Virus record (IMG/VR): IMGVR_UViG_3300033146_002242
Coordinates: 1-64,000 of that record
Origin: a virus
DNA length: 64,000 nucleotides
Direction: 5' to 3' (one strand)
Part shown: positions 2,799 to 62,649 of the stretch, one piece after another
Position numbering within the stretch: the first letter of the stretch is position 1
Layout: every line of letters begins with the position of its first letter
The notes under the pieces: generated by a model
Told to the model about the DNA's origin: nothing
The model's input: only the letters and a program-made list of their open reading frames with translations
Databases searched by the model: none
Position numbers and translations under genes: made by a program

Positions 2799-5039
2799 TT
2801 ATCCACATGCTGAATAACCACATGAATGGCAAATAGAACAACCTGATTCATAAGATATAATTCCACCACAATCAGGACATGAACCTCCCTTGTGAATATC
2901 TGTAAAATTTTCAATATCATTTTTTTTGTCTTTATTACCATTCATTTTAATATGTTTTTTAATACATTGTGCAATAGCATCAGCACATGATAAAACTTTA
3001 TTTTCACCAAATCCAATTGGTCTATGACATGATATACCAATTAGTTGTTTAACAATTTCTTCTGGTTTTTGACCACTTCTACATGCTAAAGAAATTAATC
3101 GTCCTATAGCTTCACATTGACTGGATGAACACCCACCCGCTTTTCCAATTGTATTAAAGATTTCAAAAACATTACCATCTTCATCTTCATTAATTGTTAT
3201 ATAAATATCACCACAACCAGTTGTAAATTGATATGTATATCCTTTTAATACATTAGGTCTTTCTTTTTTAATTCTTTCTTTTTGAGCATATTCTTCTTTA
3301 TTTTCTTTTTTTGATTTAATATTTAAAACTTGATTTTGACGGCAATTATTTCTATAGACAGTTACACCTTTACAACCACTTTCAAAAGCCATCATATATG
3401 CTTTTTCAATATCTTTTTCTGTAGCTGATTCTGGAAAATTAATTGTTTTACTAACAGCATTGTTTGTATATTTTTGAAAAGCTGCTTGAATTTTAATATG
3501 TTCTTCTGGTTTAATATCATGTGCAGTTTGTAAAAATAATTTATATTCAGATGGGATATCTTCACAATTTTGACATGTTCCTTCTTCTGCAACTTGTTTG
3601 ATTATTTTTTCTTTATCAATTTTATATCTATCATTTATTTCATCAAGAATTTTATCAAAAACTGGATTTACTTCGAAAAATTCTTTGCCATCCATAATAC
3701 GTCTGACATATGCTAATGAAAATAATGGTTCGATACCACTAGAACAATTAGCTATAATTGATATTGTTCCGGTAGGCGCAATAGTTGTTCTAGTGGAATT
3801 ACGTATGGGGTCTTCTTTGCACTCTGGATATGCACCTCTTTCTTCTGCTAATTGTATTGATTTACCTTTAGCTGTATTATTAATAACTTGCATAACCACA
3901 GATGCAAATTCAACTGCTTTTTGAGAAGAATATGGAATACGTAATTTTATCAATGTATCCGCAAATCCCATAACTCCTAATCCAATATTACGAGTTTTTT
4001 TAGTTTCTTGTTCAATCATTTTTAATGGATACTTATTCATTTCAATTACATTATCTAAAAAATGAACAGCATTATCAACAATGGTTTTCAAACTATTGAA
4101 ATCAAAATATCTTTTTTCTTCATCAACAAATTTTGATAAATTAATTGAACCTAGATTACAACTATCACCAGCTCGCAACACCTGTTCACCACATGGATTA
4201 GTAGCTTCATATTTACCTAAATGTGGTGTTGGATTATAATCATTCATTCTATCAATAAAAATAATTCCAGGTTCACCTGTTTTCCATGCTTGATGTACAA
4301 TTTTATTAAAAACTTCTTTTGCGTTTAATTGTTTAACTATTTTATTATTTCGTGGATTTATTAAATTATATGTGGTGTTATTTTTTACTGCGTCCATAAA
4401 AGAATCGGTGACAGTAACAGAAATATTGAAATTATTTAACTGTGTCAAATCGGCTTTACATTCAATAAATTCAAGTATATCAGGGTGGTCAATACGAAGT
4501 ATACCCATGTTAGCCCCCCGCCTTGTACCACCTTGTTTGACCTCTTCTGTAGCCGCATTATATATTTTCATAAAGGAAATTGGACCTGATGAAACACCAG
4601 ATGTTGATTGCACTTTATCATTTGATGGTCTTAATCGAGAAAAAGAAAACCCTGTACCACCACCAGCTTTATGTATCATTGCAGTATGTTTTAATGTATC
4701 AAATATACTTTCCATTGAATCTTCAATAGGTAAAACAAAACAAGCTGATAACATTGGATTTTTCTTACCAGCATTCATTAATGTTGGAGAGTTTGGCATA
4801 AATTTTTGATTTATCATCATTGAAAAAAATTTATCAGCAGTTTCATCTATATATTCAGATCCATAATTCAAATCACCTTTGGCAATAAAATCAGCAACTC
4901 TATGAAACATTCCATCGGGAGTTTCTAAAAAATTCATATCTTTATCTTTCAATAAATATCTTGTTTCTATTACGTTTTTAGATGTTACTGTTAAATTAAA
5001 AATATTTTTTTCCAACATGAATATTCTCCTATTGAGCAA
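2799..5039 (-). CDS. nrdJ: Adenosylcobalamin-dependent (class II) ribonucleotide reductase with C-terminal TSCPD/Zn-ribbon region
   Basis: [45 protein letters not shown] motifs; C-terminal [17 protein letters not shown]; likely start 5018 (MLEKN). Confidence 0.92.
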
Positions 5040-51263: not shown

Positions 51264-51503
51264 CTCCTATTTAATTTATATACCATAGTAGGATTAACTA
51301 TGGTCACAATAACAATAAGATTGTTATTAGTATTAATTAATATATATAATAAAGTTGAGTTAAATAAATTGATAATTTATTATTTTTATTATAATTAAAT
51401 AGTGTTATTATATATATTCATTCTTGATATTTGAGATTGGTTTTTATTTTTAGAGAACATAAAAATACATTCATATATTATATTGCAAGGAGGTTTAAAC
51501 GAT

Positions 51504-52094
51504 ATGAATTCTATAGAGAAACCATCATATAATTATGATTTGATTATTTTATTTTCGGGTGGTGCTGATAGTGCCATGTTACATGATTTAGCAATATCAT
51601 CAAAAAGACATCCAATTTATTTAATGATTGATTATGAACAATTGCATAAAGAAGAATTACAATATGCTAAAAGATTGTTAGAATATTGTAAATCTATTCA
51701 ACATTCACAAACTGTAAAAATTCAGAATTTAAAAATAAATTCTGGTTTGACAGGTGATGGTGAAGTAAATCAATATAATAATGTTCATCCTTTTCATGTA
51801 CCATCTAGAAATCTTATGTTTATCTCGATTGCAGCTTCTATTGCAGAAGCTAATAATATTGATACTATTTGGTATGGCGCTGATTTATCAGATAGGGAAA
51901 ATTTATTTCCTGATTGTTATCAGGAATGGATTATAAAAGTTAATGAACTTTTGAAAATAAATGGAAGTAAACCAATAAAATTGGAAGCTCCATTAATAGG
52001 AATGACAAAAGATTCTATTTTACAATATTTGAAATCTAGAGGTTATAGAGAAGAAATTATTTTTTCTGGATATGGTAATTTAGATAAAAATTAA
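51504..52094 (+). CDS. queC: QueC-like (7-cyano-7-deazaguanine synthase family) protein lacking the C-terminal Zn cluster
   Basis: FSGGADS, DYEQLHKEE, VPSRNLMFISIAASIA, FPDC; late-promoter motif at 51454-51467. Confidence 0.8.
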   Translation: MNSIEKPSYNYDLIILFSGGADSAMLHDLAISSKRHPIYLMIDYEQLHKEELQYAKRLLEYCKSIQHSQTVKIQNLKINSGLTGDGEVNQYNNVHPFHVPSRNLMFISIAASIAEANNIDTIWYGADLSDRENLFPDCYQEWIIKVNELLKINGSKPIKLEAPLIGMTKDSILQYLKSRGYREEIIFSGYGNLDKN

Positions 52095-52139: not shown

Positions 52140-52820
52140 ATGGACGATACAAGAATTTTAATTACAAATGAATATTATCCAAAAGGATTAAATGATGTGC
52201 AAGTGCAAAAACATTATAAGAAATATCAAAAAGAAATTTTATTAGAAGTACAACGAAGAAAAGTTGCTCTTGTAATCTGTCCAGATACAAATAATTTAGT
52301 TTGGTTAAGGAATATTAAAAATAAACCTATTTATTTAAAGAATAGGAGAGATTTTCAAAATATAATTCATGAAAGAGTTTTATCAATTTTTCCTGAAATT
52401 CAACAGTATGAAAAGAAATTAGTTGTTGATATTGATTGTACTAATATTAATAATGCAAAAAAAGTAGCAAAATTATTATATAATATATTTACAAAGTCTG
52501 GATATATTACTGATGTAAAAATATTTTTTACTGGACAAACATCTTTTCATTTACATTTATTTTTACCTAATAAAACAAATATTGAGAGAGGTAAAGAATT
52601 AGTTGATGGGTTAATTAGGAGAGATGCATTTGCTCCAAAATTAATGACAATCAATCAAAGAAGGCCCAAAGATGAATTCCCAAATATAGATTTTTCAACT
52701 TTTAAAGAAAGATCAATTTATATTTGTCCATATTCATTATCAAAATTTGGGTTAATTGCGGGAGAAGTAAAAATAAATGAAATAGATTCATTTAATATAC
52801 AACATTATAAAGTTAAATAG
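52140..52820 (+). CDS. AEP primase-polymerase (LigD polymerase-domain-like)
   Basis: VVDIDC (DxD), FTGQTSFHLHL, IDF..ICPYSLS. Confidence 0.8.
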   Translation: MDDTRILITNEYYPKGLNDVQVQKHYKKYQKEILLEVQRRKVALVICPDTNNLVWLRNIKNKPIYLKNRRDFQNIIHERVLSIFPEIQQYEKKLVVDIDCTNINNAKKVAKLLYNIFTKSGYITDVKIFFTGQTSFHLHLFLPNKTNIERGKELVDGLIRRDAFAPKLMTINQRRPKDEFPNIDFSTFKERSIYICPYSLSKFGLIAGEVKINEIDSFNIQHYKVK

Positions 52821-53393
52821 TTTATTCACTAAATAAGAGTGAGGCGGGCCTCGGCTAAGCAGAATAAATATTATATATATTTGCTCACTAAATAAGTGAG
52901 ATATTGTTGTGTTGTTTGGATAAATATTATATATGTTTGCTCACTTATTTAGTGAGACTGGATTTTTCCCTATCATCAGAATATTAATTAGATAAAAACA
53001 TATTTGCTCATTAAATAAATGAGATATAACCTGGCCGTTATTTTAATTAAATATTATGTATTTGCTCACTAAATAAGTGAGAGATTATGTTCTTTTGATT
53101 TAGGTATTAAAGTATTTTGAATAATATATGTTTGCTCATTAAATAAATGAGACAGGGCGTAAGAAGGTAAAAATAAATGAAATAGATTCATTTATAATAT
53201 ACAACATTATAAAGTTAAATAGTTTGTTCACTAAATAAGTGAAATGAGATTATTTTGTTTTTTATTAGATTATTAATCAAATAAAAACATGTTTGCTTAC
53301 TAAACAAGTGAGATGGGGATAGAGAGTTTGGACGTAAATCAGGTTTTTAAAATAAAATATATGTTTGCTCATTAAATACAATAAAAATGAGAA
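52820..53393 (+). CRISPR. Degenerate type V-like CRISPR array, 9 repeats
   Basis: Core TGTTTGCTCACTAAATAAGTGAGAC-like repeats ending at 52845, 52902, 52958, 53025, 53083, 53153, 53250, 53314 and 53393; 6-bp 3' hairpin plus 2-nt tail; non-identical spacers. Confidence 0.75.
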
Positions 53394-53484
53394 AAGTAGC
53401 TAATGTAATTTGTTTTAAAAAATAAAAAGAGTTATATATATTTATAAATAGTAGAAATGATTATAATTTTATATAGGTAATAAA

Positions 53485-54015
53485 ATGAAAGCTAATATTG
53501 AAAAAGAAAAACTTTTTAAAAAGTTTATAGATAATGGAGAAATTTGGGCTGATAAATATGGTAATATTTATAAGAAAAATGGAACTTGTAAATATCATTT
53601 AAATAATACTGGTTATTATAGATTATCATATAAATCAATAACTATTTTTGTGCATAGGTTGGTTTGGATTTATTTCAAAGGATTGATATATGATGATAAG
53701 CTACAAATTAATCATATTGATGGGGATAAATTAAATAATACTTTGGAAAATTTAGAAATTGTTGATAATAAAACTAATACAAAACATGCTATACTAATGG
53801 GTTTACGAACACCCATATCAGAAAAAACAAAACAATATTTTTCTGAAAAGATAAGGGGGTGCAAAAATATAAATGCAAAATTTACACAATCCGATGTTAT
53901 TTTATATAGGTATTTATATAAAATGGGCAAAATAAATATAAAAACAATTTCTGAAAAATACGATATAACACAACGAAGTGTAAAAAATATGTTGAGTGGA
54001 AAAACATATAATTAA
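53485..54015 (+). CDS. Free-standing HNH homing endonuclease with C-terminal HTH
   Basis: [30 protein letters not shown]. Confidence 0.88.
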
Positions 54016-54022
54016 GTTATAT

Positions 54023-54382
54023 GCCCGGATGGCGGAATAGGTAGACGCAAGGGACTTGACTCGTAAATAAATTGAGCGGCATATTTGAAAAAATATGTTT
54101 GAATCGGGTGAATTCAGGGGAACCTTCTTAATTTTATTTAGAATTAAATGGCAATCCTGAGCCAAGACATCAACGCTTTGATGGAAGGTGCAGAGACTAG
54201 ATGGTGAGGAAAGATACGTTTCTCGTAAAACATCATAAGCGCCCGACACCTAAGGATTTTATTTTAATCTATGGTGATGATATAGTCCAGACCACAAACA
54301 TTGTAAAATGGCAATGAAAATTGTAGTGGTACGAAAATCCCTCGTTCGTAAGAACGTGCCGGTTCGATTCCGGCTCCGGGCA
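54023..54382 (+). tRNA. trnL: tRNA-Leu(UAA) interrupted by a group I intron
   Basis: Exons 54023-54057 and 54334-54382 rebuild the cloverleaf with AGGGA-CTTAAAA-TCCCT and a long variable arm; AACA-TATAAT-TA motif at 54003-54014. Confidence 0.92.
54058..54333 (+). mobile_element. Group I intron (IC3, trnL-type), 276 nt, no ORF
   Basis: GGCAATCCTGAGCC, GTGCAGAGACTAGATGG and ATATAGTCC core motifs; 5' exon ends in U, intron ends in G; inserted between U34 and A35. Confidence 0.9.
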
Positions 54383-54649: not shown

Positions 54650-55080
54650 ATCGACAAAAACTTTTCGTTGTGGTAAATTGTAGTTCGCGAACACCACAAC
54701 ATAGGTGGGTAGATTGCACCTCTCCACCAAAAGTTACAAAACGATTGCCATTCTCGGCCAAGAATGGAAAAAGGTATTATTCGTTTATTGCTCGGAATGA
54801 ATAATATGCTTCGGTGAAGGCATCGGAGAATATAAAAAGAATTAAATAGCTTTGAAAATCAGGATTAACAAATATTGATACTCTCAGATTGCGAAGCCTC
54901 AGAGCTCTTAGATGAGCAGCCGGAGGATAGGCTGAGAGTTGGAGTCGTCGATACAGGGAGTCCAGAGAATACTGTCAAGTCTTAAGGCTTCGGTAGCAGT
55001 ATTTGATGACGGACCCGGTGCAGTGTAGAAGCTAGTCTGGTAACAGAAGGCAAGGCCACCGAAAGGCGCATGGCCCATGC
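54650..55080 (+). ncRNA. Large structured ncRNA candidate containing repeat module copy 1 (54881-55051)
   Basis: Series of hairpins (GTTGTGGT/ACCACAAC, CCATTCT/AGAATGG, TATTATTC/GAATAATA) then a module duplicated at 55946. Confidence 0.6.
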
Positions 55081-55945: not shown

Positions 55946-56118
55946 CCTCTGGATTGCGAAGCCTTGTACCCTTGTTTAGAGGGAGCCGAGAGGATAGGCC
56001 AGAGGTTGGAGTCGTCGATACAGGGAGTCCAGAGAATACTGTCAAGTCTTAAGGCTTCGGTAGCAGTATTTGATGACGGACCCGGTGCAGTGTAGAAGCT
56101 AGTCTGGTAACAGAAGGC
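55946..56118 (+). repeat. Structured RNA module copy 2 (direct repeat of 54881-55051)
   Basis: 114 bp identical (54938-55051 = 56005-56118); 5' part differs by compensatory changes. Confidence 0.85.
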
Positions 56119-61823: not shown

Positions 61824-62094
61824 TCAAAATATTAATATTATTTAAAAAGGATTAATATGATAAATACAATTTTATTAGTAATATCTATAATTGGGTTATT
61901 GGTATTAATAGTGTTGGGTATTTTATTTATAATCGAGATAAATAAAATATTTAATCGAGGTATATCAAATGAAACAATCGAAAAAATATTAGATAGAAAA
62001 CCAATTTTTTGGATACCTCCATTTAATTAAAAAATTTACATTTGCATATTAAGTAAATATGACGATTTATACTTTTTATTTATAAATTTAATGT

Positions 62095-62168
62095 GTGGGT
62101 GTGGCCTAGTCTGGTAAGGCACCTGATTTGGGATCAGGAAATCGGAGGTTCAAATCCTCTCACCCGCA
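62095..62168 (+). tRNA. trnP: tRNA-Pro(UGG)
   Basis: CCTGA-TTTGGGA-TCAGG; acceptor GTGGGTG/CACCCGC. Confidence 0.9.
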
Positions 62169-62333
62169 TCAATTTTGTAATTTTTAAATTTGCACTATGA
62201 ACAATAGTGACAAATAGCAGAGGATTGTAAATGAGGAGATACAGATTGATATATATTATCATTAGTATATATTCCATAATAATTTATAAATATTACACAT
62301 TATACTAATGTGGCGGCTGGCGTTGGATTTAAT

Positions 62334-62570
62334 ATGATTATATATCGATGTGATAGATGTAATAAAAAAATGGATGAAGATGAGAATCGTAGAATTGAAG
62401 GATTTAATAAATTTTCATCTAATGATATTATGCATTTTACAATTTCAATAAAGCCAGATAATAAACATTTTTGTCATGATTGTATCAGGCTTATGGTAAT
62501 CAATGCATTAGAAGATCCCAACAATAATATATTATATGGGTGTAATACAAAATATATTAGTAATAAATAA
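62334..62570 (+). CDS. Small Zn-binding protein
   Basis: YRCDRCNKK..HFCHDC. Confidence 0.6.
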   Translation: MIIYRCDRCNKKMDEDENRRIEGFNKFSSNDIMHFTISIKPDNKHFCHDCIRLMVINALEDPNNNILYGCNTKYISNK

Positions 62571-62649
62571 ATTTATTTATGCATTACACATTTTAAATGT
62601 GACAATATAATATTGTATTATTTTTTAAAAAAAGTGAAAGGAGCTTTGT

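Follow-up and report, generated by a model that had tools for sequence, protein, structure and literature searches.

Hairpins resembling solitary Cas12m crRNA handles among the tRNA genes and mRNA leaders around a phage cas12m gene

Cas12m is a compact DNA binder that is used for base and epigenome editing. In engineered polycistronic tRNA-gRNA arrays, the release of the guides depends on the tRNAs. The crRNA scaffold of type V-M systems is known from the structure of Cas12m2, in which the guide is preceded by C(-1), A(-2) and then a 6-bp helix with a C-G closing pair, G(-23) before the helix pairs non-canonically with A(-2), and the 5' region and loop nucleotides form a second stacked helix (PMC10442227). 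In Cas12m2, crRNA C(-1) is read by the His269/Arg270 dyad, which also stacks on G(-23):A(-2) (PMC10442227). The RuvC triads of the described non-cleaving Cas12m proteins are H-D-D or N-D-D, and the N-D-D variants have been described for DNA-binding, non-cleaving members (PMC11013384). PmCas12m alone makes two cuts in its pre-crRNA, one behind repeat nucleotide 2-3 and the other at guide position 17-18 (bioRxiv 10.64898/2026.03.26.714355), and MsCas12m and Cas12m2 also process their own crRNA (PMC11013384, PMC10442227).

Single repeat-like elements have been described in two other settings. Standalone repeat-like units and mini-arrays (SRUs, CreR/crlRNA) adjoin type V effector genes, mostly upstream, and are present in about a third to half of V-A loci; the pseudo-spacer of CreR/crlRNA partly matches the cas promoter or leader beside a PAM (bioRxiv 10.1101/2023.03.03.530964; Shmakov et al., 2023). 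Racrs are phage RNA anti-CRISPRs that mimic host repeats and occur in phages without the cognate cas gene (PMC10651486).

The stretch of DNA analyzed here (the window) comprises the first 64 kb of the 118,287-bp IMG/VR virus record IMGVR_UViG_3300033146_002242. This record is a fragment of a very large phage, because CheckV puts its completeness at 38%. The G+C content of the contig is 26%. Only one gene of the cas12m type is present in the 118-kb contig, and it runs across the end of the window. Its product matched the solved Cas12m structure 23vw_A with an E-value of 2.6e-49 over residues 6-579, that is, over the full length, and also matched 23vu, 8hio and 8pm4. UnCas12m4a, Cas12m2 and GoCas12m are among the solved proteins that were matched. 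The protein has a TNB zinc finger and a TnpB-type RuvC domain (PF07282, 39.7 bits). The guided_TnpB model NF040570 scored 50 bits, which is below its curated cut-off of 100 and is taken as supportive only.

The three RuvC positions of the phage protein (Table 1) are invariant across a seven-member clade and align with the D/H, E/D and D residues of the solved proteins. The phage motif PVLLHRPLP aligns with PVQVHRWLP of Cas12m2, and the His-Arg dyad of the WED domain is kept. On the strength of these alignments, the phage effector is homologous to Cas12m (type V-M) over its full length, its RuvC triad reads N-D-D, and it is predicted to be a DNA binder without nuclease activity. Directly after the cas12m stop codon, an 18-bp perfect hairpin with a 9-nt loop and a T run forms a strong terminator (contig 64409-64453, corresponding to 3410-3454 in locus L002). 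Our simple terminator scan missed this hairpin because of the 9-nt loop.

Around cas12m lies an island in which small ORFs and tRNA genes (Thr, Lys, Ser and Pro, followed by Gln, Asn and Met) take turns, every one of them on the + strand. No above-threshold Pfam or PHROG match was found for the small ORFs, and the Cys-rich ORF of 78 aa had no family match in either collection. Between the second and the third of the hairpins described below (62226-62300), a GAGGAG Shine-Dalgarno-like motif precedes a possible TTG-started ORF of 20 codons, which is rich in Ile and Tyr and too short to judge.

Eight lone hairpins (H1 to H8) were located in the island (Table 1). All are intergenic, and all lie on the coding (+) strand. 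The initial annotation had described four of them before the effector gene, with TTR, a 6-bp stem beginning with C and ending with G, a mostly 5-nt loop and an AC or GC tail, and all four are present on the + strand in this form. It had also noted different stem sequences. The stems differ from one another and from those of the array through compensated base-pair changes only. H3 and H4 share one stem sequence, which recurs in H5, so that the same stem is found around three consecutive genes.

Table 1. Features of the cas12m island and of the distal array. Positions are those of the window unless marked "contig".
Feature	Position	Strand	Description
Degenerate nine-unit array U0-U8, same handle	52809..53394	+	AT-rich flank, TTTG, 6-bp stem, mostly 5-nt loop, A
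H1, lone putative handle, canonical ends	62041..62063, stem 62045-62061	+	TTTG, 6-bp stem, 5-nt loop, tail AC
H1 guide-position stretch	62064..62094	+	About 31 nt, AT-rich, ends at the 5' end of tRNA-Pro
tRNA-Pro (UGG)	62094-62170 (ARAGORN); 62095-62168 (Rfam, 67.5 bits)	+	Inside the H1-H2 spacer
H2, lone putative handle, canonical ends	62189..62211, stem 62193-62209	+	TTTG, 5-nt loop, tail AC
H3, putative handle of the TTA class	62293..62314, stem 62296-62312	+	5-nt loop, tail GC (flank/tail swapped to A..G)
ORF of 78 aa, Cys-rich	62334..62570	+	Two CxxC pairs; between H3 and H4
H4, putative handle of the TTA class	62584..62603, stem 62587-62601	+	3-nt loop, tail AC
cas12m, 584 aa	62650..64000, running on to contig 64404	+	RuvC N323, D478, D566/D568; HR dyad 269-270
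H5	Stem contig 64535-64552	+	Stem as in H3/H4; ends 2 nt before the ATG of the next ORF
H6	Contig 65058-65074	+	Shares its stem with H7; before tRNA-Gln
H7	Contig 65126-65143	+	Shares its stem with H6; 27 nt before tRNA-Gln
H8	Contig 66341-66357	+	Flank begins 18 nt after tRNA-Met

The view that these hairpins are repeat-type units of the effector's own system was supported by their Cas12m scaffold layout, by their match to the array and by the mini-arrays that homologous loci carry in the same places. The 6-bp helix is closed by a C-G pair in H1-H5 and H8 and by a U-G pair in H6 and H7. Position -1 is occupied by C in seven of the eight lone units. When the array and the island were taken together (17 units), the flank and tail residues on either side of the helix were G..A in 11 units, A..G in three (U0, H3, H8), A..A in two and A-U in one. 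Within the island, this corresponds to G..A-C in H1, H2 and H6, A..G-C in H3 and H8, A..A in H4 and H5, and A-U in H7. The A that replaces G before the stem and the lack of flank-loop pairing place H3 and H4 in a separate subclass from H1 and H2.

The flank of the array units (A/G-TTT) is able to pair with the loop (AAA-T/C), and the units vary by compensated changes in the stem. In the array units together with H1 and H2, 92% of the flank-loop cells were paired, with one switch from A-U to G-C. H1 was paired at all four positions (one of them a wobble) and H2 in part, and inspection by eye showed none in H3-H7. In every tested feature, H1 and H2 match the array handle. The stems fall into five types in the island and four in the array, and one type can be converted into another in one or two base-pair steps, each fully compensated on the opposite arm. 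Across the twelve units with a 5-nt loop, every cell pairs, and five of the six pairs have changed on both sides. The 100% stem pairing of the lone units is partly circular, since they were found as hairpins, and the shared flanks and tails are not. Unit U2 of the array (52936-52957) has the same stem as its neighbours and a loop that is the exact reverse complement of theirs; this abolishes the flank-loop pairing of this single unit.

The array itself lies about 9 kb upstream of the island units and has an irregular period of 56-92 nt. It consists of two sub-arrays, each behind a copy of one leader of about 70 nt. The first copy of this stretch (52768-52837) includes the last codons and the stop of the ORF at 52140-52820, and the second follows U5 (53166-53239), with a 45-nt core that is 98% identical. 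Each sub-array opens with a T-started stem variant. No exact copy of the array repeat was found in IMG/VR. The near-identical repeats, regular intervals and uniform spacers by which a CRISPR array is recognized are lacking in the island, where the units are solitary, differ in their stems and follow each other at irregular distances of 68-291 nt. Two of the island "spacers" hold a tRNA or an ORF.

Several other elements lie close to the array. Just upstream, at 51483-52094 and 52140-52820, are a QueC homologue (7-deazaguanine pathway, E 2.4e-30) and an ORF with weak resemblance to primase-polymerases; this may hint at modified DNA in this phage. A group I intron match (Rfam, 76.9 bits, E 1.6e-18) is located at 54055-54306, about 650 nt downstream of the array, and is directly preceded by an HNH endonuclease ORF (53485-54015). 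A direct repeat of 129 nt with 96% identity is present at 54923-55051 and 55990-56118, its two copies being 1,067 nt apart.

The likeness to the described type V-M systems (MmCas12m2, GoCas12m, MsCas12m and PmCas12m) covers the effector, with its full-length homology, non-canonical RuvC triad and HR dyad, as well as the handle, which has a 6-bp helix by the guide, closed by C-G in most units, mostly the G:A flank and mostly C at -1, with the repeat 5' of the guide. The phage repeats differ from those of the described systems in being AT-rich, in their loops of 3-6 nt and in the stem differences from unit to unit. Also unlike in those systems, the gene-proximal units are solitary and stand among tRNAs and ORFs, and the only array is distant and irregular. 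In the stretches examined, cas1, cas2 and cas4 genes did not come to notice.

A strict, array-derived pattern (TTTG, C-N5, 5-nt loop, N5'-G, A) had seven matches in the 118-kb contig, all on the + strand, namely five array units, H1 and H2. In 200 dinucleotide shuffles, the mean number of matches was 0.055. A looser pattern, in which TT[GA] is followed by a 6-bp stem with a loop of 3-7 nt, was applied to intergenic DNA and had eight matches in the 1,279 nt around cas12m, all on the + strand, versus three matches on both strands in the remaining 10,924 nt of intergenic DNA of the contig. The density of hairpins in the island was about 45 times that of the remaining intergenic DNA.

Covariance models pointed in the same direction. 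They were built from units with 5-nt loops only, because MAFFT misaligned the units with loops of 3, 6 and 12 nt. With a model made from array units alone, H1 was the top non-array match in the contig (26.7 bits, E 0.009), and H2 scored 15.2 bits. A second model, trained on U1-U7 and H1-H3, recovered four units that were absent from its training set, namely U8, U0, H5 (27.7 bits, E 0.0075) and, with a weaker score, H4, and it gave indications of additional units a short way past the window. The folding energies were compared with those of shuffled sequences as well. The z value was -2.5 for the H2 region and between about 0 and -0.6 elsewhere; the hairpins are short, AT-rich and weak. The comparison with shuffled and other intergenic DNA that had been proposed for these hairpins thus placed them above chance by pattern and by density, with folding energies no better than those of shuffles. 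Because the folding energies are unremarkable, the case rests on pattern, recurrence and context, and not on stability.

The interleaving with tRNAs was part of the initial annotation. The succession of H1, 31 nt, tRNA-Pro and, about 20 nt further on, H2 is real, with a measured distance of 18 nt between the tRNA and H2, and the tRNA-Pro was confirmed by both ARAGORN and Rfam. H1 follows directly on the stop codon of a 57-aa ORF, and the guide-position stretch of H2 has a G+C content above the phage level. Two further junctions of this kind are found on the other side of cas12m, where H7 is followed by tRNA-Gln after 27 nt and tRNA-Met is followed by H8 after 18 nt. Altogether, four of the eight units are no more than 31 nt away from a tRNA end, versus 1.5 expected for random placement in the intergenic DNA of the island (P 0.024, with a threshold chosen post hoc). 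The distance between H1 and H2 is 148 nt, and subtraction of the 77-nt tRNA leaves 71 nt, which equals the array period (the H6-H7 period is 68 nt). Because of this agreement, the tRNA-Pro looks like the occupant of a spacer. No CCA is encoded in this tRNA gene, in which the discriminator base is followed by TCA (62168-62171), and therefore the 3' end of the tRNA must be generated by an endonuclease and completed by addition of CCA.

From tRNA-Lys up to the hairpin that follows cas12m, the search for terminators on the + strand returned none. For this reason, co-transcription of this stretch is the default assumption, and the handles, tRNAs and messengers are probably parts of one precursor transcript. 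If so, tRNA processing would cut beside H1, H2, H7 and H8. H1-H7 were not called as intrinsic terminators, and only H8 and the hairpin after cas12m qualified as such. H8, with a T-rich run behind it, may be no more than a terminator.

The initial annotation had gone further and raised the possibility of a natural tRNA-guide polycistron, in which tRNA processing could release the guides. The arrangement that it described stands, as tRNA-Pro is placed between two units with canonical ends and four of the eight units abut tRNAs. The role that it assigned to tRNA processing is less well founded, because PmCas12m trims both ends of its crRNA itself, so that by analogy tRNAs would be unnecessary for guide release, and related loci are free of tRNAs. 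The tRNA is probably a passenger or a helper, and not a requirement. The locus resembles engineered polycistronic tRNA-gRNA arrays in that tRNAs come both after and before guide units on the same strand. It is unlike them in that only H1 has a 3' tRNA at a guide-like distance and in that Cas12m orthologues trim their own guides.

On balance, we think it probable that the hairpins are solitary crRNA handles of the phage's own Cas12m, placed among tRNAs and mRNA leaders. Beyond the features described so far, we infer co-transcription, binding by Cas12m, processing and any effect on regulation. The prediction is that every handle is gripped by Cas12m. In H1, H2 and H6, which have G before the stem and AC after it, the following 17-20 nt would act as guide. 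Given the position of tRNA-Pro between H1 and H2, its maturation by RNase P and by tRNA 3' processing would sever the transcript about 31 nt downstream of H1 and about 20 nt upstream of H2, and H1, tRNA-Pro and H2 would together be, in form, a natural tRNA-crRNA polycistron.

The units with the shared stem would behave differently. H3 ends 21 nt before the ATG of the Cys-rich ORF, H4 ends 48 nt before the cas12m ATG (62650), and H5 is found 3' of cas12m, beyond its terminator. As all three precede start codons, the "guide" would in their case be the mRNA leader itself. H3 and H4 have less of the look of guide units than of cis elements in mRNA leaders. If Cas12m bound or trimmed at H3, H4 and H5, the 78-aa ORF, cas12m and the next ORF would be affected in cis, as the leaders of these three consecutive genes would be held by the bound protein or trimmed by it at about 17 nt. 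In the fullest version of this proposal, Cas12m reads handles in the phage's own primary transcripts, the maturation of tRNAs and crRNA-like RNAs is coupled, and there is post-transcriptional feedback on its own and neighbouring mRNA leaders. We regard this version as possible, but doubtful.

A regulatory role had also been suggested on other grounds, since the spacer of the last unit before cas12m lies in the 5' region of the effector gene, which was read as a hint at autoregulation. As DNA targeting, this idea found no support. No spacer matched the cas12m promoter or leader in trans with up to 4 mismatches over 20 nt, no seed of 9-12 nt was found near cas12m, and the template of H4 itself is preceded by the handle end and not by a TTN/YTN PAM. 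Because there is neither a match in the cas12m promoter or leader nor a PAM at H4, DNA self-repression of the CreR type is unsupported. The phage units are like SRUs and CreR in being single repeat-like elements next to a type V effector gene, but unlike CreR/crlRNA they come without a promoter-matching pseudo-spacer and are placed in mRNA leaders and tRNA flanks. Searches with the array and island units for protospacers in the 118-kb contig, phage records, IMG/VR and species genomes also returned none.

Homologous loci were inspected as well. Six proteins are 45-52% identical to the phage Cas12m, and their contigs are phage- or plasmid-like. Directly upstream and/or downstream of cas12m, and on its strand, these loci have mini-arrays of 2-4 repeats. 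The repeats are 32 nt long and consist of a flank ending in pyrimidine-G, a C-started 6-bp stem, a loop of 7-8 nt and AC, and the last three pairs of the stem covary between loci. The last upstream repeat is located 26-49 nt before the start codon in the homologues, and H4 is located 48 nt before it in the phage. Judged by spacing, the island units occupy the proximal mini-array positions of the relatives, with H4 corresponding to their terminal upstream repeat. This positional homology was observed directly, as were the sequences, their statistics and the family of the protein. The more distant phage homologues L011, L013 and L014 have flanking arrays, too. No tRNA was found in the related cas12m loci. 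The search for the same layout beside homologues, as suggested at the outset, was therefore successful with regard to the mini-arrays, which are at the same positions and have a last repeat that abuts the cas12m leader, but not with regard to the tRNAs. The genes 3' of cas12m in this phage and in locus L005 are unrelated.

The compact arrays of the homologues at these positions also lend themselves to another explanation, according to which the hairpins are decayed remnants: a proximal mini-array of the homologue type would have eroded, a tRNA and small ORFs would have been inserted, and the hairpins would now be idle. The irregular spacing, the differing stems, the failure of the searches to find targets and the weak stability fit this picture, and so do the shortened loops (3-6 nt in the lone units versus 7-9 nt in the homologues) and the H1-H2 distance, which matches the array period once the tRNA is subtracted, as if the tRNA had been inserted into a spacer. 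However, compensated changes have left the 6-bp pairing perfect in all eight units, which also retain the TT-purine flank and, in most cases, the C at -1, and neutral decay would break these features. All eight are also on the transcribed strand, and one stem is found three times around three consecutive genes, neither of which speaks for decay. We consider decay unlikely.

The hairpins might also be generic RNA processing or stability signals of a tRNA island that are independent of Cas12m and are read by a host or phage ribonuclease or another RNA-binding protein; the "array" at 52.8 kb would then be a cluster of such signals or of small RNAs. The four units next to tRNA ends, of which two share the distance of 18 nt from the preceding tRNA, and the position of H8 before a T-rich run are compatible with this idea, and 62% of the genome is unseen, so that another RNA-binding protein could be the true partner. 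Signals of this kind would not be expected to obey the scaffold rules of Cas12m2 (C-G closure, G:A flank, C at -1), as the units mostly do. Moreover, the units are found only in the array and around cas12m, and not at the Thr, Lys, Ser, Asn and Arg tRNA genes or in other operons, and homologous cas12m genes have true repeats in these positions. This explanation strikes us as distinctly unlikely.

Elements acting at the level of DNA were considered next to these RNA-based explanations. Such elements could be palindromic operators (for example, for a repressor encoded by the Cys-rich ORF), parts of promoters for a phage RNA polymerase, or recombination sites. The occurrence of one palindrome (H3, H4, H5) ahead of three consecutive genes would suit operators, and H4 lies between -35-like and -10-like hexamers. 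Sigma-70-like sites are not enriched, however, and for this reason the hexamer pair around H4 was given no weight as a promoter. The half-sites are unevenly spaced, with loops of 5, 3 and 6 nt between them, the 3' side has no mirror image of the conserved 5' flank, and all units are on one strand, all of which disagrees with operators or similar elements. The same is true for the absence of the AACATATAA-type motif from the cas12m island. Altogether, an origin of the pattern in DNA-level elements is very unlikely.

The AACATATAA-type motif recurs elsewhere 25-100 nt before the start codons of at least eight genes (758, 5571, 6789, 12822, 26600 and 34204 on the - strand; 35956 and contig 87148 on the + strand) and may serve the phage's own RNA polymerase as a promoter.

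RNA decoys similar to Racrs, which would mimic repeats in order to soak up a Cas12m-type effector of the host or of a rival, are a further conceivable explanation. Solitary repeat units of phages are known in that role (PMC10651486), the phage here shares with Racrs the presence of such units in a phage genome, and the diversity of the stems could indicate tuning to several effectors. In contrast to phages with Racrs, the phage here carries the effector itself, amid the units, and an array of its own in addition, and we deem it most improbable that the units are decoys. The least credible explanation, which we give practically no weight, is that of chance structures in AT-rich intergenic DNA, as the shuffle, covariance-model and density tests all argue against it and only the folding energies, being no better than those of shuffles, would agree with it.

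Two other known arrangements were compared with the locus and rejected. Ends of IS200/IS605-type elements were considered because H4 and H5 flank cas12m and begin with TTAC, but the offset expected between the hairpin and the cleavage motif is missing, the protein is a complete Cas12m, and no Y1 transposase came to notice. Promoter/stem-loop cassettes of the T4 type were dismissed because there are no ORFs between the units of the array.

We return to the explanation that we favour, in which the hairpins are handles of the phage's own Cas12m. Solitary repeat units of type V systems are already known, and this locus is of interest because its units are interspersed with tRNAs and mRNA leaders and because their stems drift under a conserved shape. 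The handles hold their shape while the stem sequence drifts, and they would therefore provide a natural mutational map of what Cas12m needs in its guide scaffold. If Cas12m binds the lone handles, a CRISPR effector would act on the virus's own tRNA and mRNA precursors. Such an action is not among the roles described in the Cas12m literature examined and, if true, the arrangement would be a natural counterpart of the engineered tRNA-guide arrays.
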